From Saccostrea echinata (Eukaryota): a DNA stretch of 64,000 nucleotides. The notes under the pieces are model-generated. The model did not search any database. It was not told the DNA's origin and worked only from the letters and a program-made list of their open reading frames with translations. Both the position numbers and the translations under genes were made by a program. This document shows, one piece after another, positions 8,381 to 62,905 of the stretch. The stretch spans positions 11,780,001 through 11,844,000 of the forward strand of contig NW_026889803.1 of NCBI RefSeq assembly GCF_033153115.1. The letters run 5' to 3'. Within the stretch, counting starts at the first letter, position 1. Each line of letters begins with the position of its first letter.

Positions 8381-9544
8381 AAATCCAAGGAATTTTTAGG
8401 AAATTTGAAACCACAAAATTTCACCAAAATCGAAATCAACAACATCAAAACGACTTTTCAACTTTATACAACCATTCCCCACGATAGATTTAAGTCCAAG
8501 CTTTTTGACATCAATGACAGCTGGTTTTTCAAAAAAAAAAATCAGAACTCGTAAATTTACTTGTCATTGGTCATTTGCAACATTATTTTGTTAAAACAAT
8601 ATTCTGATTGTACACACAAGTACTCTGAAGTTGACATTAAAAAGATGCTTGTGTTTCTGATTGACAATATCTGTGTAGTTTTTGGAGACCAGGTCTTCCA
8701 ACAATCTGTCGGAATTCCCATGGATACCAATTGCAACCCGTTATTAGCAAATCTATTTTTGTATTCATATCGAGCAGAATTTATTCAAAATCCTAAACAT
8801 GAGAAGAAAAAGCAAAAAAAAAAAACACTTGCTGTGGCCTTCAACTCAACATTTAGATATATCGACGACGTATTATTAATCAACAACTGCTACTTCCATT
8901 CATATGTCGACTCGATATATCCCAGTGAGCTTCAAATAAAAGATACCACAAAGTCTGACATATCTGATTCATATCTGGATATTTTACTAGAAAAAGACTT
9001 TAATGGTAACCTTACAACCAAGCTTTATGATAAACGTGATGACTTCAACTTTTGAATCGTCAACTTCCCTTACTTATGTAGCAATATACCCTTATCACCC
9101 GCATATGAGGTTTATGTCTCTCAGTTGATTCGATACACAAGAGCATGCTCTACGTACGAACAATTTCTAAAAACAAGGCAAGCTATTGACAATTAAAGTG
9201 ATAAAACAAGAATATCAACAGTCATCATTTCGCAAGTTCTATGGTCGATACAATGGCCTTGTCAGCAAATTAAATCTATCATTAAGTCAAATGCTGACTG
9301 ATGTTTTTCATACTAATTGTTAAGCCATTTTTTCAACACTGAATTGTCTACGGATTTTTCTGTTTTCCCGATCATGATAAGGAGCACACGGCGGGTGTGA
9401 CCGGTCGGCAAGGGATGCTCACTCCTCCATAGCACCTGATCCAACCTCTGATGTTTTAGAGGTCCGTGTTTGCTCCGCTCCTGATTTGTATTGTTTGAAT
9501 GGACTTTTAAGCTTGAATACTGTTCTTTATCTCCATATTTCATT
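8381..9544 (+). mobile_element. 5'-truncated, decayed Penelope-like retroelement (Naiad-type RT 3' half)
   Basis: RT motifs QQSVGIPMDTNC, FRYIDD, YLDI, LYDKRDDFNF; frameshifts; family 3' tail ending TATCTCCATATTTCATT shared with five other copies in the window. Confidence 0.85.
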
Positions 9545-14800: not shown

Positions 14801-15565
14801 CAAAAATAAAACAGTTAGATGATGGCGTGACATTGATCTGAAAAGTTGGCAATGTTTTGCTGAATGCCAAATCCTTTGTCCGAACTGATGTAAAACATGT
14901 ATCTATATAAGAAAAGGTTTTACTTTGTTGTATGGATACTAGCTGTAAAGCTCATTGATACCTAACTATCTTCAGCTAAATTCCGATCTAAATTTTCGAT
15001 ACAAACTGTATTCGGAAATTTTCCAAAAATTACTTTTCCTATGTGGCGGTACTGAAATGATTTCCACATTGCTCATATTAAGACTCAATATTAAATAATC
15101 AAAATGTGTAATGTTTGAAATCGTGTTTCAGAATGACAGACTTGGGAATACCACGAAGAAGTACGGAACAGAAAGTTTTCTTTGGTCAGACTTATGGAAT
15201 GTCCGACTTCGTATCCCTGTCTTTGGGTAAAGTATTCATAACAGACAAAAGAATTTACACATACAATATTCACTGTATGTTTGATTAAAAAAGCATAGAT
15301 TGCATTAAATATGAAACTATCCTTAATTTCAAGTCATAGTCCCAAAGGCTATGTATTAAATTTAGATACGAAATTTGCTTTTCTTTTCCTATCAGGTCAG
15401 ACTGGCTATATGATCCACAAATCAATACCTTATGGCACTGTTGATGAAGTTCTTCCCTATCTGTCCCGAAGGGTTAATGAAAATAGTTCCATTTTCGGTG
15501 GAATGAGACGAGAACGCAGTATCATCCGAAGAGCCCTTGCAGATCGTGTTCTGTCAAAAACGTGA
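11891..15565 (+). CDS. PRODH2: Mitochondrial proline/hydroxyproline dehydrogenase (PRODH2-like), copy 2, ~477 aa
   Basis: Exons 11891-12145, 12785-12975, 13176-13305, 13593-13679, 13819-13899, 13972-14118, 14196-14473, 15132-15226, 15396-15565. Exons 2-9 have exactly the same lengths as in copy 1 and the same catalytic motifs (GQTYGM instead of GQLYGM; RRVNEN). Confidence 0.9.
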
Positions 15566-16489: not shown

Positions 16490-17276
16490 ACATTTACAAA
16501 AGTATGAAACTTGATTTTTTTCTAAACTTGTACCAAGTTCAGTTGCTATCAAATCAGAAATTGTAGGAGGAGTGTCATTTTGAAAGATTTTCACATTTCC
16601 TCAGTAGCTACATGTATGGTAACACTGACGACTAAAATTATGTGTCTTAGTTTGCATCATTGTTCTTTTTTGTTTTTTGTTTAGTATGGTGTAATACATT
16701 TCTGTTCCACGTTTCATTGAAATTAGAATCTGTAAGAGGGATAGGGTTTTAAAAGAATTTTACAGAAATTTCTATATTTGGAGCTATTGCAACACCATTA
16801 GATGGAATCATAAACCGTTACACTGAATTGTATCTTAGTGTTTAGTCTACATCCTCATCTTATGTACCAGGATTTATTGAAATCAGACCAAAACAGGAGC
16901 GTTTTGAAAGAATTTCACAGAAATTTTCTTTATCAACAATAGCAACAAAATTCTTCTAATTCAAAGATCGATTCAAGAACTGTGTATACATTAGTTCAGT
17001 CTTTGTATCAAGTTTTACTGAAATCGGACCAAAAATTCCGGGAAATTAGAGTTTTGAAAGAATTTCACAGAAATTTTTGCTTAGTTAATATGACTTCACT
17101 GTTCTACAACATCAAAAAACTTATTTTAAAAAATTACGTAGCTTAGTGTAGTCTACTTGTGTACGAATTTTTTTTTTTACAAATACAAGCAAGACGCAAA
17201 CTGTAGGAGGAAAGACGGGAGGCGACATTTTGCAACCGTATAAGCTCTTCTAGACTTTGATTAGTAAAGCTAAAAA
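16490..17276 (+). repeat. Degenerate ~140-175 bp tandem units, probably the interior of an old Helentron-type element
   Basis: Recurring TGTACCAAGTT..AAATC..GTAGGAGGAG..TTTTGAAAGAATTTCACAG blocks near 16530, 16705, 16865, 17005, 17160; ends in AAAGCTAAAAA. Confidence 0.45.
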
Positions 17277-17449
17277 TGAAATTCCTACAATTTAAAATTA
17301 CACTTCACGAAACAAACACAAGAAATATCATTGTTAATGTTACTATAATGTAGTTGTGTATGTGTTTAGGTGATACTGAGTAAATGTATAATTAACAGTT
17401 AAGCATTATTAGTGATCAAGGTAAGTTTTTAATCGGTATAAAAATAATT

Positions 17450-20400
17450 TCATTCTGGTTCAATATTTTCACAAAATGTAATGCTAAAACCTTCTCGACT
17501 TAATATGTCAATGACAGGTTTTAGATCCTCACAAACGATTAATTTTGATTTATCGTCTTCCTCTGTTTTGTCACTTTCGTACAGCTTTCTTTGCCCTGGA
17601 GGTGGAATATATTTTCCAAGAAGTACTCCGATGATGTCTATCATGTTTAACTCAGTGTCATACCCATTTCTTATGACATACGCAGCACTATCCCCACATT
17701 CTGAAAAGTCACCATCCATTCCTTCAATGAAAAAAACTGTATATGTGCAATTATTTGTATGATCATTGCAATGTTCTATACCTTTAATAATGCCGTCCGT
17801 CCAGCGAGTCCTTGCACCCTTTTTATGAACAATTTCATACATCAGTTTATCTGACTCATGTTCATACAGTCTTGCAGACACCTTCTCTTCGCTAGGATTT
17901 CTAAAAACTTGATCAAAATTATCATAGAGCTTGCGATTGGTTAGAACGAGAGAAAGATCTCTTGGATGAAAATTTCTAGTACATACTCCGACTTGTCGCA
18001 CACATTGGTTTTCTTGAAATCTAGCATACATGTATTCCTTTGGCTGGTACACGTGATTGCAGCTAAATACAACAAGATTATCTTTTTCTCCCATTTTCTT
18101 CATCTTAGCAAAACCTCCAACTGTTCCTTGGTGTTCCCTTTGCATGACTGTACCACTTGTATCGTTTTCCTGACGACGGAATGATAAACATACATCACCT
18201 TGCTTAACAAATGAATGTGGCTTTACATCCCATTCTCCGGGCGTGGAGATCAATTCGGTCTTCCAGGTAAATTCGCCGCTATTTCGAACTATTTGCAACT
18301 CCTGCCAAATATTGTCTATCACCTTTTCGCAAGTTTTTTCATGTACATGTATCTGAAACTTGTCCATATAAAAGCCGTAACTAACTATGGATTGTTTGTG
18401 CCTGAAATAAACATGCAAAATGAGAGTTTAATAAACTGAATCGCTCAATTTCTCATATCATCAGATGTGTAATTCATTTCGAAAAGTGACAATTCATTCT
18501 TCTGACATAAAAAGTAAAACGTACTTACTGATCCAGGACCATCTTCATCATTTTAGGGATGACTCGACTCGGTTTTATTTCGGATTTCCTTTTTCCAGAC
18601 GTGTACTTACGTCGATTTAGTCTCTTACAGATTGCATTCTTTTGAATCAATAGCGATCTGTTTATGGATAAGTTTTTCCGAGTTTTTGCTATCTTTTCAA
18701 TAAAGCTCAGCAATTTTTCTTCCAGGAGTGACGTAACAGCCTCACGCACATCCTCTTTTTTATTTGACACTTGTACTAATTGTACATTTTTAACAGATAT
18801 TTCTTCACTTAATATCTTACATCTAGGATCAGTCACCAGTAAGACCACCTGCGAAATACCATCACGATGTTTCGCTAAAACAGGCAAAGTTCTTCGCAGC
18901 TAGAAAAAGAAACGTAAAATTCAGAATCATTGTAAATAATCAGCTTTTATTTGCGGAAGAAAGTTTGTATATATTTCATTTACTTTTTCGACATTTTCAG
19001 ATGATGTGGAGCCTTCTTCTGAAGTCATAAAACAAACGATGCATATCGGAAAATGGTCCTCAAGACTTTTTTCAAATGTTGATTCTTCGATGGCTGTTAA
19101 TAATACGAAATGTTTACTTTAATAAATACACCGTTAATCTTTAAACATCACTGTAACGATTTTAAAATAATTGTCTTTAAGAAATATGCTAGTTACCTTC
19201 CTCACTGTAAAAACGTTTATGTGAGAGCAAGTCGATATTGTTTTTAGAAATTATTCCGCGTGTCATAATTAGTGGGAATGACCAATACGTGTCGTCACTG
19301 GTATCAATGTCCCCTTGTTTTGAAGATTTATCTATATCTGCCACCCTTTCGAGTAGTTTTCGTATCAAAGACACATGGTAATCATAACGTGGGAAGTCTT
19401 GTGAATCATAGCAGAGGAAGACTGAAAAGAAAAAAAAATTAACATTGAATATTTTATGGACAAATATGCATATTTTATCACCCTGGAGCTACTTTTAAGT
19501 AGAAAATCAATTGCAGTGCTTACTTGCATCAGTGAAATCCCAGTTTTCAACGGCAAACAATTCTGCTTCAATATTTGACCAATCTGCATATTCTTTAAGT
19601 CGAAATGAGAATGTTTTAGGAAATTCTTCACTTATATTCCTATCAAGATAGAACCGCAGAGCTGATTTTAATTCCAACATTTCTTTCTTGTTTTTCCACG
19701 TGAGAAAACTTTTGAAAAACCCTTTAAAATCATCCAATTTTGAAAGAAAATAAAATGCCATAGATTCCCTCTCAAATTTTTCAGCGGATTTTTCACATGG
19801 ATAAATTGAAGAAGATAATATGTATAGCTGCATAAAAAGCTTTGACAGAAATTCAGAATCTTTCATTAAAGGGGACTTTTCAAGTATATCTTTATCAATT
19901 CCACATAACCCACAGGCTATCCTCTGTATGATCGCAAGGTGATATTGTTCATCTATTACTAGTTGTCTTTCTGCTTTACTGCCTTGTCCAAGTTCTGCAA
20001 ATGTCACTAAGGCCGACACACTGATATTGTCCAAGAGCAAGCCAGGGTCATGAGAAAGGAGCCATTTCAGAGCTGGTAACCGCAGATGGTTTTCCAAAGA
20101 CAATGACATCCATTTCAAATGCTTCATAATGTCTTCCTCTGATTGAAAAAATGAATCGCTACATGAAGAATGTTTCGGAATTTTTCGCATATTTCTCAAA
20201 CAAAGGATATTATTCATTGCGCGTTTTTTATCTTGACTTTCCAAACCAAGAGTATCACATTCCCCTACAACCATAGCAACACTGCATATCCTACAGAATA
20301 CTTCAAAATCAGTTTCCACTATCTTTTTGAGCACTTCATCAAAGTAATAATCTGGGGTTTGAAACTCCTTCGTGTACCCTACATTCCATCTCTGAAGCAT

Positions 20401-21665
20401 TGAGCAAAACAAAGGGAATCCCATACTTACATCATATGGATTTTGGGTAATTCCGTATCGCGTCCTCAATTTCACTTGGTCCATTGAATTCCACTGTATT
20501 TTGTAGTAGAACATGTCTAAATTTTTTATCGGATGACTTGACGTAGAGTTCAGAGTAACTATAACAAATCTTTTCTTTTGTTGTTCATCGCATGCATCCT
20601 GTATAACTTTGATCCAGTTTGGATCAGAGAGATCAACATTATCAAGGATTATGTAAGTTTTGTCATGGTTCTTTTCCCATTGTGAAGGATGGGTAATGAA
20701 AGCTATATTTTCTGCATTTGCACAGTTATGCATGACAATAACTGCACAATGCGTCTTTCCACTGCCTCGACACCCTTGTATGGACATACATCTATGTTGG
20801 TACAATATACTTCTAATATCTTCAAAAAGAGAAATTTCTACGTGATGAGAATAAAAGTGCTGAACTATGGATGTCCAAGGTATCTGAAATATGTATTTAA
20901 AATACTGAGAAAGTAGCAAGAAATGCATTTATATACTCCTATTTATTACAATATTTTAGGCTGTAATTTTTCTTCATTTTCACAAACTTATGAACCCATT
21001 TATATATGATTATTAATAAATGGGAAAACTTGAAAGATAAAATATCTATCTGTTTGTATTAAAACCGAAAGAGAAAAGAAAAGGAAAAATTCTGTAGGTT
21101 TCAAGATTATACAGGTCATCTGCGAGAACACCTCCGGACACTTTTTATCTGTTTACATGTCAACGGTGGCCATTTTGAAAATTTAAATTGTTGACTGCAC
21201 AACTAGGGTTGCTGAGCATCATTTAAGTTTCATTAAGATTGTCCAAGTCATATCCGAGAAAATGCTCGGACAAAATTATAGGTCTAGCAATAACAATACA
21301 TGTCGTCCCGACTACGTTCGGGATGACATAAATATATAAACGATTACATACAACCTTCTAGTAAAATATCATATTGAAAAAAATCAAACTAATGTTGCAT
21401 ATGTACAAAGAAAATCCATTACACCGAAAAAGATTATGAATCTGAATGCAAATTTTTAAAGAGGATAAAATGGCGGCCTTGTAATCTTCGTCCGGGTTGG
21501 CGATAAAGTACACGTTATATACGAATATAGTCAGATTAAGACAAAAAAAATAAATACTTTTCTTAATCCAAAGATAGAATATTCATTCTTAAGTATTATA
21601 AATATAATCTAAAATCACAGGAAAGATGATAAAACCTTGATTACCTGTTCATTTGATTCTTCCAT
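17450..21665 (-). CDS. STAND (nSTAND3-like) P-loop NTPase fused to a C-terminal trypsin-like serine protease, ~1012 aa
   Basis: Exons (minus) 21665-21645 (MEESNEQ, tentative), 20883-19524, 19421-19197, 19093-18984, 18899-18529, 18401-17450; 3039 nt in one open frame. Walker A GCRGSGKT, Walker B YIILDN, sensor strand FVIVT, STAND GxP motif GFPLFC. Protease motifs GTVGGF, SCNHV, RDLSLV, KKGARTRWTDG, GDSAA, IIGVLLG. Confidence 0.8.
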
Positions 21666-23326: not shown

Positions 23327-24952
23327 ATGCATGTCGTTGGTATATTCGCCTTTCTTTGTTTTGCTGGGGCAAATGGCCTAGTGATACGTAAGTCTTAAGT
23401 CAGATAACACTTAAATATACAAGTAAGTTATTTCCAAATTGTATTTGAAAGATATTTATTTGAAAACTGATTTGAAAAGCAGCATTTTTGAAAACTGTGA
23501 TTACTGAACAATTCTTATTGATAACTGTAACATAAAAATAGAAACAGTTTTGAGAAAGAAATTTTCTCATAGGTCTCCTTAATACCTTTTGTTAAAAAGC
23601 TAGAGCATTTAAGCAAACCCAGGTTATTAAATATATCGTTTAGTGAGATTCTTATGAATTACTAAGTATTGATAGACTATATTTATTGTGTTTGATACGA
23701 AAAAGGAATTGAAAGAAAAGACATTAAGAAACATGAACATATATAAATATTTACAATTTCTTTTATTATTCTTCAACTAAATTAACATATAAATTTCTAA
23801 GATCCAAATGGCCAAGGAACCCCCACAACTGTCGTTAAGTCCCTGAATGGGGAAACAGTTATGCAATCCGGACCTCCAATCACCCATCCAGAGCAATCCA
23901 GACAAAATGAGAACCAATTCGTCAGAGACCCAACCATATTTAATCCTAAGAGATCCAGACTTAATTCAATTCAAACTGATCCAACGAATGCAATGATGAA
24001 CAACATGGTTCGAATGATGAACCCAATGGCACCTGAGACTATTCGACAGGAACAAAAGCCTTCCATGTCTGACAGGTCAAAGATGATGATGAATATGATA
24101 AAAAATATGCCTAACATGGCAAGTGTGATGGGAGATAGAACAGCAATGGCCGATCTTATGAATGCGATGTCATCAGCATCTGAGATAATGGCCAAAATGC
24201 AGAACAATATGAAAATGAATCAAGCCAGAAAATCTAATGTGCAGTCTCCGTATGAAACAGACTACTATATGCCCATCATGACGAATAAGATGACAAATAT
24301 GCCCACAATGGTTTCTAATGACATGATGAAAAATGCACCCTTCATGCCTCCTGCTTCTGAAATGATGGGAAATATGCCCTCCATGCCCCCTGCTGCTGAA
24401 ATGATGACAAATGTTCCCTCCATGCCCTCTGCTGCTGAAATGATGACAAATGTGCCCTCCATGCCCTCTGCTGCTGAAAAGATGACAATTATATCCTCTA
24501 TGCCCCCTGCTGCTGAAATGATGACGAATATGCCTTCCATGCCCAATATGCCTCCTGCTGCTGAAATGATAATGCAAAAGGGCCAAATGTCTGATATTAT
24601 GTCTAAAGTATCCCAAGTACCTTTCGGTATTAAAATGATGGGATTCAGTCCACAACAACGCAGTAAGTACAACTACTTCTGTTTGTGATAATTCTTGTAT
24701 ATATTTTTTTCTAATTTGATTGTTGTAGATCAAATAATATCGGCATAATATTCAATATAATTTACACAAATTGAACACTAGTATATAATTATAGCCTTGT
24801 GACAAACAATTCTTACAAATCATTATCGAAAGCTTAAAGACAATGATTCCGTCATCTGAGCGTTAAGATAGTAGGGAAATCACACAGATAATCTTCATTT
24901 TTATATTAATGTTGTTTACATCTTAGTTTTTTCCTCTATTTCAGGATATTAA
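23327..24952 (+). CDS. Secreted Met/Pro-rich repeat protein, ~309 aa
   Basis: Exons 23327-23387 (signal peptide MHVVGIFAFLCFAGANG), 23802-24662, 24945-24952 (ends QQRRY*). About six 13-aa repeats MP(P/S)AAEMMTN(V/M)PS at ~24343-24570. Confidence 0.8.
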
Positions 24953-42632: not shown

Positions 42633-45450
42633 ATGTTAAGGTGTGCCTTTACACGACCCACGCTATGCATCAAAACATTTTTTTGGTCCTAAAAATAAAA
42701 TGTGGAAGTCAAAACATACATTATATCATGTTTGACATCTAATACATTGACCATAATAATCATCTGACAATTTAATACCGCAGGAAAAAGAAATCAATCA
42801 AAGAAATCCTTGCAGTACATCTTCTTTCATTTATTCGGATTTATTGGTTCTTTAACAGTTCATTTCTCTTGTTTAGGGTGCGTGGAATTTCCGTTATATT
42901 CATGATATTCATTCAGATGGCTATTTTTCATGGAAATCTAAGTACATGCAGGAAACAAAAATTAAATATGCATCCAACATAAGTAAAAGTTTGTTTAGTT
43001 TATCAAAACTGTATTACAATTTTATACAGATATGAGGGTGAAACGTCCTACACTCTCTTCTGAGATTTGCAATAACCCTACCCACTCTACGCACCCCTTG
43101 TTGTTCCTTGGTGAAAGAATCTGATACTAATATATATTCTAGTGTAAGTTCACACAAGCATGACAGAAGAAATGATAAACAAGCATAAATACACAGACTT
43201 ACCAGTGTTCATTGTTTCTATAGTCTGTGAATCCCCTGTAGAAAGGAACATCATTTTCAAGCATGTTTTCTTGATACAATTCTTAATCTATTCCAATAAT
43301 ATTTCTTTCATGTAATAATACATCCAAGAAATTTGTTTGAACTTACCCTATTTTTTATCACAGTAGGGCCAATAAAATATAAATACTCTTTTTTCATTTA
43401 CAAACAAGCCTTTGTATCTTTGTTCCACCTACTGACAAAGAAATATTAATTCGACAATATATAATTCTTTTAATTCAATTCTAAAATTCATTAATTTTAT
43501 ACACTCAATGCAATTTTACGATGATTTTAATACATATGCCTGAATTTGCGCAAAGCAAAGAGAAAACTTTTGAAACAATTTACAGATATTATAAAAACTA
43601 TGCAAATTCATCGTTCAAATTTCCAAATTTTTTTTTGCTCAAGTTGTTTGTTTCTAATTCTTTTTTGTTATGTTTTATTTTTTTGAATTAGCGACAAATT
43701 TTTGCCACTGCTGCACTCTGCTCTGTCTGTCTGGTATCATAGGGAAAAAAAAATCATATATTGTAATGACAGTATTTTAACAACATAAAAACTTATGACT
43801 TTTCAACTTTATATACAACTATTCCCCACGATAAATTAAAGTCCAGACTTTCCGACATCGTTGACAGCTGCTTTTTCAATAAGAATGGAACTCGTAAATT
43901 TACTTACCTTGTCATTAGTCATTTGCAAAATTACTTTGTTAAAAAGCAATCTGTTTGTACACACAAGTACTCTGAAGTTGACATTAAAAAGATGCTCGAG
44001 TCTCTGATTGACAATATCTATGTGGTTTTTTGGAGACCAGGTCTTCCAACAATCTATTGGAATTCCCATGGGTACCAATTGCTCCCCGTTATTAGCAGAC
44101 TTATTTTTTGTATTCATATGAAGCAGAATTTGTTAAAATATCTTTTACGTGAAAAGAAGAAAACACTTGCTGTGGCCTTCAACTCGGCATTTAGATATAT
44201 CGACGACGTATTGTCAATTAACAATGGTTATTTCCATTCTTATGTCGACACGATATATCCCGGTGAGCTTGAGATAAAAGATACTACAGAGTCTGACACA
44301 TCTGTTTCATATTTGGATATTTTATTAGAAATAGACGTTAAAGGTAATCTAACAACAAAGCTTTATGATAAACGTGATGACTTTAACTTTTCAATAGTCA
44401 ACTTCCCTTACCTATGCAGCAATATACCCTTATCACCTGTATACGGGGTTTATATCTCTCAGTTGATTCTATACACAAGAGCATGCTCTACGTATGAACA
44501 ATTTCTAAAACGAGATAAATTATTGACAAACAAGTTGATGAAACAAGAATATCAGCAGTCTCGTATAAAGTCATCATTTCGTAAGTTCTATGGTCGATAC
44601 AATGACCTTGTCAGCAAATACAATCTATCATTAAGTCAAATGCTGACTGACTTTTTTCATACTAATTGTTAGGCCATTTTTTACACACTAAATTGTCGAC
44701 GGATTTCCCCATTATTTCCCGATCATGACAAAGAGCATACCGTGGGAGTGACCGGTCGGCAGGGGATGCTCACTCCTCCATGGCACATGATCCCATGATG
44801 TCTTAGAGGTCCGAGTTTGCTCTGCTCCTATTTTGTAATGTTTGATGGACTTTTGAGCTCGAATACTGTTCGTTATCTCCACATGTTTCATTACCATTTT
44901 AAAAGTTATTTTTATTCGAGTGTTAACAATCTTCCTATTTTTCCAAAGAATGCTTTTATATAAGTTCTTGTAATGCATCTAACTCTCTCAGGAGGTATAA
45001 AAGAAATGAAAAGTATTATTGCATGAGAAAAAAGGGTGGAACATTGATAGAAAAATGGGTAAATGGATAAAACAGGTAATAACTGATAAAGTCAGCAGAC
45101 ATAGACTAGAAAGGAACAAAGTCAGAATATATGGTTCTATGAGGATGTCATCTTTTGGTGACATTATAAACGAAGGGATGGAAGGCAATATGGGCAAGGA
45201 AATGTGATGATGCCCATGGAAATGTTAAGTTTGATATAAGGTAAAAACATGAGGAAAATGAATGATCTTCATAAAGTGATATGATGGCGTTAGATTTACA
45301 TGTATAAGAGATATGGGAAGCATAAAATATAAGCACTTACTTTTGTGGAGAATTTTTTTTACATATGTAATTCCTTCTGGCTTCTGTCTATTCTTCAGTC
45401 TTAGCCGCATTTGTTTAATACAAAACTCACTGCGCTGACCCAATTCATTA
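42633..45450 (+). pseudogene. Pseudogene B of the abductin-like family
   Basis: Promoter homolog at 42633-42790 with no TATTTAAA; exon 1 to 42877; decayed repeat exon 44992-45328 aligning to genes A/C, with stops, frameshifts and donor GT changed to AT; last-exon remnant 45405-45418. Signal exon not found. Interrupted by a PLE. Confidence 0.7.
43778..44892 (+). mobile_element. 5'-truncated Penelope-like (Naiad-type) retroelement
   Basis: ORF 43923-44672 with FRYIDD and LYDKRDDFNFSIVNFP..SNIP..YGVYISQL, stopping after the thumb; frameshifts; family 3' tail. Confidence 0.85.
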
Positions 45451-46392: not shown

Positions 46393-47229
46393 ATGGTTTT
46401 CTCTCTCGTTGCCGTTTCTTGCCTTATTGCTGTGGCCAGCGCAGCAGGCTACGGGCCAGGTAATGAAATTTCACTTTGTTATACTTTCTTTGCATATTAA
46501 TTTGGTTTTTTTTTTTCTTTCTTTTTTTTTAAAGACTTAAAGCAGCAACAAAAAATTATAATAAATAAATAAATAAATAAATCTTGCCACCACAACATAG
46601 CTAAACCCTTCTTTTCAGATGTTAAATATAGACACCAATTCATCTAAATAAAATATATTTTTTTATTAGGAGGAGGTATGGGAATGATGAATGGCGGTAT
46701 GGGAGGAGGCATGATGAACGGCGGCATGGGTGGAGGAATGATGAACGGCGGCATGGGAGGAGGAATGATGAACGGCGGCATTGGAGGAGGAATGGGCAAA
46801 ATGATGATGATGATGCCAGCAAATATGGGCATGGGAGGAGGCATGGGCTCCATGATGATGCCATCTTTGGGCGGCATGATGAATGGAGGAATGGGAGGCA
46901 GCATGGGCAAAGGTAGTATGATGATGATGCCAATGGGAATGATGAATATGATGAAAGGTGGAATGGGCGGAAATATGGGTGGAATGAACAGTATGATGAT
47001 GCCAGCCAGCATGGGCGGTATGATGGGCTCTGGAGGTATGGGTGGCATGGGAAGCATGAAATGTAAGTCTTTTGTTTTTATTACCAACTTCAAGATTCAT
47101 TTCTTATTTATCAAATGTCTATCACACTTTTATCCTTGAATGCATTAAAAAAAAATAATAGTTTTGAATGTTTCAGTAATCATATAATCTAATTTATTTT
47201 TTTTCCCTTCTATTACAGCCGCTTATTAG
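46393..47229 (+). CDS. Abductin-like secreted Gly/Met-rich protein C, ~156 aa
   Basis: Exons 46393-46459 (MVFSLVAVSCLIAVASAAGYGP), 46670-47062, 47219-47229 (ends MKSAY*); AATAAA at 47320. Confidence 0.85.
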
Positions 47230-61771: not shown

Positions 61772-62905
61772 ATGGCATCTCTCCTGTGCGCTCTTTCTGC
61801 TGTGTTGGCCGTATCTATGGTCAGTGCAAGAGGTTATGGTCCAGGTTGGTTTCTTTCGATGAACATTTCAATAAAATTAAGTGTCTTCTACGAAATAATA
61901 CTTTACAGCATTGAATGGAGATAAGAGACTTTTTTTCTACTTTTCATCATTGTTTGAATTGTCCATTTTTCTCTATCTAACTGGAACATTTGCTTATTTA
62001 TAGGTGGAATGGGCGGAATGATGTCGGGTGGAATAGGCGGTGGAATGATGTCAATGGGAGGCATAGGATCCATGGGCGGTAGTATGGGAGGCATTGGATC
62101 CATGATGCCAATTAGTAAAATGATGGGAAGCATGGGCGGTATTGGATCTATGGGAAGCATGGGTGGAATTGGATCTATGGGCGGAATTGGATCTATGGGT
62201 GGCATGGGTGGAATTGGATCAATGGGCAGCATGGGTGGAATCGGATCAATGGGAAGCATGGGTGGAATCGGATCTATGGGCGGAATAAGATACATGAAAT
62301 CTATGGGCGGCATTGGATCCATGGGCGGTATTGGATCTATGGGTGGCATGGGATCCATGGGCGGTATTGGATTTATGGGCGGCATGGGATCAATGGGCGG
62401 CATGGGATCAATGGGCGGCATCGGATCCATGGGTGGCATCGGTTCCATGGGCGGTATCGGATCCATGGGTGGCATGGGAGGTAAGTTATCAGGATAAATA
62501 GTATTTGGTATTACTTTCATTCTCATATTCATAATTTGAATTTGTTTACAAGTTGATTTTCTTTAAAGATAAGGAAATCTCAATTAAATAGAAAACAAAA
62601 TTATTTAAATTTGATTTGATAGTTTTGAAATAAATATGATTATTAATATTCTGTAAAAATTTTCATTACAGGCATGGGAATGAAATGTAAGTGTCATTGT
62701 TAATATATCTTTATGCATAATAATTATNNNNNNNNNNNNNNNNNNNNNNNNNNNNNNNNNNNNNNNNNNNNNNNNNNNNNNNNNNNNNNNNNNNNNNNNN
62801 NNNNNNNNNNNNNNNNNNNNNNNNNNNNNNNNNNNNNNNNNNNNNNNNNNNNNNNNNNNNNNNNNNNNNNNNNNNNNNNNNNNNNNNNNNTTAGCTGGAT
62901 ATTAA
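61772..62905 (+). CDS. Abductin-like secreted Gly/Met/Ser-rich protein E, ~191 aa
   Basis: Exons 61772-61844 (MASLLCALSAVLAVSMVSARGYGP), 62004-62480 (GG(I/M)GSM repeats), 62672-62686 (15-nt microexon GMGMK), 62895-62905 (SGY*, just after the gap); AATAAA at 62964. An extra exon inside the gap cannot be excluded. Confidence 0.8.
62728..62890. other. Assembly gap in the last intron of gene E
   Basis: Run of N. Confidence 1.

Follow-up and report, generated by a model that had tools for sequence, protein, structure and literature searches.

Background

Animal STAND proteins recruit separate caspases, and in the CED-4/CED-3 and Apaf-1/caspase-9 pairs this separate cysteine protease is brought in by CARD domains. 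In bacteria, trypsin-like proteases are fused to defence nucleoside triphosphatases (NTPases), as described for Avs1 and HamA, and are switched on by oligomerisation (PMC12799240). The nSTAND3 domain is the NTPase of Avs5 (bioRxiv 10.1101/2025.07.08.663546) and appears merely as a listed domain in the available part of PMC13449251. Effectors at the far C-terminus have been noted for bacterial NACHT proteins (bioRxiv 10.1101/2022.07.19.500537), and among the bivalve NACHT architectures given in the accessible part of PMC9646362, which include death, HEPN, LRR, TPR and WD40 domains, a fusion to a protease does not occur. Among trypsin-fold proteases, rice NARROW LEAF 1 (NAL1) forms trimers through an ABD-SPD contact and requires a hexamer for its activity (PMC12012508). 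Here, we describe a gene of the oyster Saccostrea echinata that codes for a protein of 1012 amino acids (aa) with a divergent nSTAND3 module at the N-terminus, a conserved alpha/beta domain in the middle and a NAL1-like protease at the C-terminus. It lies on a stretch of 64,000 nucleotides (nt) of contig NW_026889803.1 (assembly GCF_033153115.1, positions 11,780,001 to 11,844,000), hereafter the window, in which all positions are counted.

An initial annotation, made from the letters of the window, had read this gene as a fusion of a STAND NTPase and a serine protease and as a candidate NLR-like switch with reversed domain order, and knew of no characterised animal example. Our search of the open literature likewise found no account of an animal STAND-protease protein or of the oyster family to which it belongs, with the limit that it might be among the architectures tabulated in the supplements to PMC8195603 and the bacterial NACHT preprint, or in subscription papers. 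STAND-protease fusions are known from bacteria, and the oyster protease family is apparently undescribed. We confirmed that the gene is one real, spliced and transcribed unit, and we give about an even chance to the reading that its product is a cytosolic immune or stress switch with a protease that is activated by clustering.

Results and discussion

The NTPase and the protease are joined in one spliced transcript

The gene lies on the minus strand and consists of six exons (21665-17450; Table 1), whose 3039 coding nt specify 1012 aa with 0 internal stops; its five introns (761, 102, 103, 84 and 127 nt) are all of the GT-AG type. In short-read Logan contigs (not single molecules) from four public runs, which represent no more than three samples and two studies, introns 2-5 are absent in 4/4 runs and intron 1 in 2/4. 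This bears out the joins 19524-19421 and 18529-18401, as well as the single frame that had been assembled from a short leader and five fragments. The run type 'RNA' is a guess of the tool, none of the runs being registered as RNA, yet the skipped segments coincide exactly with the introns. One 3285-letter contig covers 20812-17113 and thereby joins Walker A and the protease stop in one transcript-type contig, which counters the two objections foreseen at the outset, namely that NTPase and protease belong to separate genes or that the locus is untranscribed. Within the spliced contig an in-frame stop is present five codons upstream of the ATG; the NTPase is therefore N-terminal in the spliced transcript, behind a leader of 7 aa and without a preceding effector domain, and the extreme N-terminal placement proposed earlier holds.

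The translation is identical to database protein P0001 (a Saccostrea echinata entry that its source calls an uncharacterized protein), a record that may derive from the same genome annotation and does not count as independent support. A protein of S. cucullata (P0002, 1033 aa) has the same layout, is 74% identical to P0001 (62-82% by region) and retains all its motifs. In a crude hydropathy test, used in place of a signal-peptide predictor, the N-terminus was not hydrophobic and no 19-residue window exceeded 1.46 on the Kyte-Doolittle scale, in agreement with the reported lack of a signal peptide. Two minor joins, each seen in a single contig and resting on short sides, would shift the frame and may be noise: a 292-nt skip within exon 2 (20139-20431, run X4) and a donor moved by 4 nt (18401-18524, run X1).

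The N-terminal module is a divergent nSTAND3

Exon 2 codes for the NTPase core, the GxP helical domain, a winged-helix equivalent and a further helical region. Residues 11-414 align with a profile of 19 nSTAND3 copies of the same genome (HHalign 98.2%, E 4.3e-14, 383 columns), and this homology covers the NTPase, the GxP helical domain and the winged-helix region; moreover, the leading matches of an Atlas search were nSTAND3 clusters (0.92/0.91). The nSTAND3 assignment, which had been suggested for checking, thus stands by profile comparison and narrowly fails by Pfam, where PF20720 scores 26.9 bits with exon 2, 25.0 with P0001 and 26.1 with P0002 (cut-off 27.2).

The NTPase motifs named in the initial annotation, like those of the protease, all lie where it had placed them. 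Walker A, the first (Mg-binding) Asp of Walker B and GxP are retained in P0001 and P0002, and the Asp-Asn of Walker B recurs in 3/19 nSTAND3 paralogs. The NTPase may be able to bind nucleotide, and a working switch is not assured. The genome holds at least 21 strong nSTAND3 copies, and a genome search found the NTPase part of the 1012-aa protein as one copy only. Run X5 carries a second version of window 19791-20249, either a divergent allele or a paralog, with 36 differences in 459 letters. Over aa 271-362 it shows 17 synonymous against 9 non-synonymous codon changes (about 94/362 sites), a comparison that covers the 28 of the 36 differences listed, in one contig of depth 4.6. This synonymous excess suggests that the helical part of the module is under purifying selection.

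The roughly 500 aa between NTPase and protease had been described as lacking recognisable repeats. Pfam indeed finds no repeat family in P0001, and aa 461-1012 are taken up by non-repeat domains; the region is not featureless, consisting of the STAND helical region, of which aa 290-460 could form a short helical solenoid, and the alpha/beta domain discussed below.

The C-terminal domain is a NAL1-like serine protease

The C-terminal domain is modelled as a trypsin fold with a double beta-barrel (predicted local distance difference test score, pLDDT, 85.4), whose closest folds are rice NAL1 and alpha-lytic-type proteases. Foldseek places NAL1 at 5e-10, and VIA aligns L5 protease (Z 18.5, root-mean-square deviation (rmsd) 4.1, 190 residues aligned) and NAL1 (Z 17.2, rmsd 3.9, 211 aligned). 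The family profile matches rice NAL1 at 1e-8, and the domain is detected by family profile and fold only, being missed by single-sequence Pfam and PDB searches. In an alignment of 56 rows the triad columns, in the order His-Asp-Ser, hold His in 55, Asp in 52 and Ser in 56 rows, and both P0001 and P0002 possess the full triad. A search of 1.84 billion representatives with the last exon gave 47 relatives at E <= 0.001; those with a name come from oysters and a pearl oyster, and many match Peptidase_S64 or Nal1_C, the Nal1_C matches all being below cut-off. By Pfam, P0001 itself matches neither Nal1_C nor NAL1_N, and the best NAL1_N match elsewhere in the genome has E 0.79. Together, model and conserved columns support the earlier assignment of a NAL1-like clan PA serine protease with an intact triad, for which proteolysis is a prediction.

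Three copies of the protease part were predicted to fold as a head-to-tail ring, scoring 0.45 where the highest of 3 controls reached 0.00; the runs share at least 76% of contacts and pLDDT is at least 75. The mark applied here was passed in calibration by 21/30 microbial and 17/29 eukaryotic homo-pairs and by 0/23 and 0/30 single chains, the present job differing from that calibration in its use of three copies. In the predicted trimer the subdomain around aa 701-755 packs against the protease domain of the neighbouring chain, an interface that resembles the ABD-SPD contact as described for NAL1 (PMC12012508).

Middle domain and protease form a constant cassette with swapped front ends

Residues 461-690 form a conserved alpha/beta domain common to the longer relatives, which is coded upstream of the protease exon at 20/20 other loci of the genome. 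Modelled alone (pLDDT 73.9), it is predicted to have a parallel-sheet alpha/beta core and a helical bundle. Foldseek and VIA both put GTPases on top (dynamin-like proteins, mitofusin, Arf, Nog1). In Foldseek, GTPases filled most of the top rows but nothing reached E <= 0.001, and the VIA values all stay under the Z 8 level (Z/rmsd/aligned: LeoA 7.8/4.1/186, mitofusin 2 7.7/4.3/190, Arf 7.0/3.4/143). Since these matches fall below significance and a GxxxxGK[ST] P-loop is not present in the middle domain of 12 aligned family members, 'pseudo-GTPase-like' is a lead only. A TIR- or SEFIR-like fold found no support, none being among the fold-search rows listed.

At 21 loci of the S. echinata genome, middle domain and protease occur together as a constant unit behind a common phase-1 intron. 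Within the 10 kb fetched per locus, the N-terminal exons at the 20 other loci comprise two RING-B-box-coiled-coil, two Cys-rich and one nSTAND3 exon, and 15 loci have no large exon. The first middle exon begins in phase 1 in 6/6 genes checked, and STAND and TRIM exons finish in phase 1 in 4/4 genes readable; these matching boundaries give the pattern of front-end swapping by exon shuffling at this intron. TRIM-type exons precede the cassette at L047:3083-4288 and L048:5635-6840 and also in Ostrea edulis (P0037). A Cys-rich N-terminal domain without a Pfam match is common to L046:3988-4866, L049:3407-4159 and P0011 (aa 1-200); its identification as a DZIP3-like HEPN domain was rejected (HHalign 1.3%, no hidden Markov model match). 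Eight of the 21 protease loci are held by a tandem cluster (G000:C27:9242000-9690000), and broken or partial copies occur at L045, L056, L059 (second copy), L061 and L062.

A second nSTAND3-middle-protease locus (L055:3174-4547, in G000:C54:8172600-8182599, minus strand) is located on the same contig at about 3.6 Mb distance. Its open frame of 458 codons scores 76 bits on nSTAND3, has canonical NTPase motifs including the sensor-1 Arg, and continues stop-free until it reaches the first codons of P0046, a database protein. That protein begins 323 codons inside the frame, so the NTPase is left out of it; no domain-bearing upstream exon was found within 25 kb. Word-index protein searches for the fusion returned P0001 and P0002 only. 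In the tree, two of the 47 library matches (the P0025 group and P0013), both protease-exon fragments, are placed beside the second fusion gene, and a scan of metagenomes for the DNA of these matches gave 514 pattern matches and no relative. This more canonical locus, the swappable front ends and the erosion of the NTPase had been missed by the initial annotation.

The NTPase and protease domains of the 1012-aa protein both have long branches. In the protease tree (29/56 rows kept, 27 being dropped for long branches or by clade thinning) both STAND lineages and the TRIM lineage fall in one 13-row clade with open branching order, and a quick tree of all 56 rows groups STAND and TRIM lineages with a support of 84 (Shimodaira-Hasegawa-like approximate likelihood ratio test). 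The NTPase tree, for which 17/19 paralogs were used, keeps the two STAND fusions apart, and the approximately unbiased test does not reject their clade (p 0.30). The trees are compatible with capture of STAND by the cassette either once or twice.

A proposed clustering-activated switch and its alternatives

If the protein is an immune or stress switch, the middle domain would restrain the protease, and trigger and multimerisation would come from the N-terminal module, which is STAND here and TRIM or Cys-rich in paralogs. Clustering via the NTPase module would then activate the protease, which is predicted to be active only as an oligomer, with cleavage of a host or pathogen protein as its probable output. 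Activation by clustering is proposed by analogy with NAL1 and bacterial Avs1/HamA. The reading is supported by the presence of the STAND-protease architecture twice in the genome and by the other front ends being TRIM RING-B-box, a domain class commonly linked to immunity, in addition to the spliced single contig, the nSTAND3 and protease homologies, the trimer model, the motifs kept in P0002 and the synonymous excess described above. More tentatively, and with greater doubt, we propose an oyster family of one-piece proteolytic immune switches, in which a pseudo-GTPase-NAL1-protease cassette captured sensors (STAND possibly twice, TRIM) at the phase-1 intron, as a single-chain animal serine-protease counterpart of the apoptosome and Avs1.

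Several observations weigh against the switch. The Pfam nSTAND3 scores of P0001 and P0002 fall just under the curated cut-off; the sensor-1 Arg, found in 19/19 paralogs, is Asn in P0001 and Lys in P0002; and the P0001 NTPase has short deletions after Walker B. After the catalytic Ser, the 3 rows of the P0001 clade have Ala, as against Gly in the remaining 53 of the 56 rows. The trimer result may be a memory of the solved relative NAL1 and, being predicted for the protease part alone, suggests that the trimer may form without the NTPase. With no large N-terminal exon at 15/20 paralog loci, many members may work without such a switch, and the neighbours, a proline dehydrogenase exon and Met/Gly-rich genes, make up no immune cluster.

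The main rival, in our estimate unlikely, holds that the worn NTPase is a scaffold or ligand binder rather than a switch, that the protease forms a NAL1-like cage alone, and that the STAND part serves only to choose or deliver substrates or, as has been suggested for inactive STANDs, to bind nucleic acid. It would account for the lost Arg and the deletions, for the helical region past the NTPase core being better conserved between P0001 and P0002 (82%) than the core itself (69%), for a trimer predicted without the NTPase and for the interchangeable N-termini, and inactive STANDs have been proposed as receptors in the available part of PMC8195603. What it explains less well is that both Saccostrea species preserve Walker A, GxP and the first Asp of Walker B, that Asp-Asn in Walker B is shared with some paralogs, and that the second fusion gene retains the Arg.

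The other rivals are less likely. Alpha-lytic protease and yeast Ssy5 (S64) are self-processing enzymes with a pro-domain, and on their model the main task of the protease would be to cut the chain it belongs to, so that the STAND module is released or armed, the middle region being the pro-domain. Alpha-lytic-type folds among the closest, the many Peptidase_S64 matches and the fixed middle domain ahead of the protease at 20/20 loci are consistent with this, but neither a cleavage site nor a conserved scissile motif came to light and a freed module would have no effector domain of its own, which makes the proposal rather improbable. A non-immune role, as an ATP-linked caged protease in protein turnover or development, appears somewhat more improbable still: NAL1, the nearest characterised relative, degrades transcription regulators in plants, the gene is single-copy and well conserved in two species, and its transcripts occur in runs from two studies for which no challenge is known, but a family grown to at least 21 loci, in which there are tandem clusters, broken copies and exchanged front ends of TRIM and STAND type, fits conflict genes better than housekeeping ones. 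That the protein is a catalytically dead or functionless product of exon shuffling, as long branches in both domains, the Gly-to-Ala change after Ser and the eroded NTPase might suggest, is very improbable given the intact 1012-codon frame, the spliced transcripts, the full triad in both species and the synonymous excess.

Coordinates and neighbourhood of the gene

Table 1. Exons, motifs and catalytic residues of the NTPase-protease gene, in window positions
Feature	Position	Strand	Remark
Exon 1, coding part (aa 1-7)	21645..21665	-	transcript extends to at least 21682
Exon 2 (aa 8-460), complete nSTAND3 module	19524..20883	-	closes at phase-1 intron
Walker A (aa 44-51)	20752..20775	-	
Walker B (aa 84-89)	20638..20655	-	Asp then Asn
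Sensor-1 strand (aa 115-120)	20545..20562	-	Asn replaces Arg
GxP motif (aa 162-165)	20410..20421	-	
Exon 3 (aa 461-535), start of conserved alpha/beta middle domain	19197..19421	-	
Exon 4 (aa 536-572), middle domain	18984..19093	-	
Exon 5 (aa 573-695), remaining middle domain and helical hairpin	18529..18899	-	
Exon 6 (aa 696-1012), NAL1/alpha-lytic-like trypsin-fold protease (predicted fold), preceded by a small alpha/beta subdomain (about 700-755)	17450..18401	-	
Catalytic His812	18053..18055	-	by alignment
Catalytic Asp844	17957..17959	-	by alignment
Catalytic Ser934	17687..17689	-	by alignment; then Ala
3' untranslated stretch	17113..17449	-	long contig of run X3

Convergent with the gene, the last exon of a proline dehydrogenase gene lies at 15299-15565 on the plus strand (Pfam Pro_dh, 1e-6). 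Just beyond the 3' end, 16743-17077 contains three 30-nt copies about 150 nt apart with very high contig depth, which is a common dispersed repeat. Low-complexity frames rich in Met, Gly and Pro are present at 23801-24688, 30684-32945, 37479-37910, 46648-47139 and 61903-62562, and we take them to resemble shell-matrix proteins. Frames at 8555-9055 and 43770-44672 resemble, by eye, reverse-transcriptase remnants of retroelements (no Pfam match at 0.01).

Comparison with known systems

The 1012-aa protein is neither an NLR, carrying only the 7-aa leader in the place of an N-terminal effector domain, nor an Avs member. Of the proposed reversed NLR, the presence of STAND and protease in one chain stands; the reversal is only one possible reading, because what stays constant is the pair of middle domain and protease, with the NTPase as just one among several N-terminal modules that are exchanged. 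By itself the order is not unprecedented, since C-terminal effectors are known in bacterial NACHT proteins, as far as the available part of that preprint goes. According to the accessible text of PMC12799240, the Avs1 (AVAST type 1) and HamA fusions likewise unite a trypsin-like protease with an oligomerising defence NTPase, but there the protease is N-terminal and paired with a separate metallo-beta-lactamase (MBL) nuclease whereas the oyster protease is C-terminal; Avs1 is also marked by a TPR sensor, a repeat that Pfam does not find in P0001, and PADLOC gave no match for P0001 or P0002. The oyster nSTAND3 proteins (PF20720) are homologous to aa 11-414 over the whole module; compared to them, P0001 is without an N-terminal effector and without the sensor-1 Arg, and continues into a protease module. 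The Crassostrea TRADD-N expansions (PMC8195603) are also lineage-specific and accompanied by domain swapping, around another constant module, and the available text of that paper does not mention the oyster protease family.

With rice NAL1 (PDB 8PMG/7Y77; Pfam Nal1_C, Peptidase_S64) the oyster protease shares the motif pattern of the trypsin fold, the lack of a visible signal peptide and a small alpha/beta subdomain ahead of the protease, which forms the predicted trimer contact in the oyster protein. It differs by an identity of 13-18%, by the added middle domain and STAND module, and by matching neither Nal1_C nor NAL1_N. The protease family is expanded in farmed oysters and without a name in the database records consulted, with one of its two STAND loci truncated as a database protein. 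If our reading is true, this pairing of a STAND module with a cytosolic serine protease in one chain would reach a proteolytic immune output by another route, hitherto studied in bacteria. Its logic would be like that of CED-4/CED-3 and Apaf-1/caspase-9, in which a STAND NTPase activates a protease by clustering, but here within one chain, with a serine protease and without a death-fold domain.

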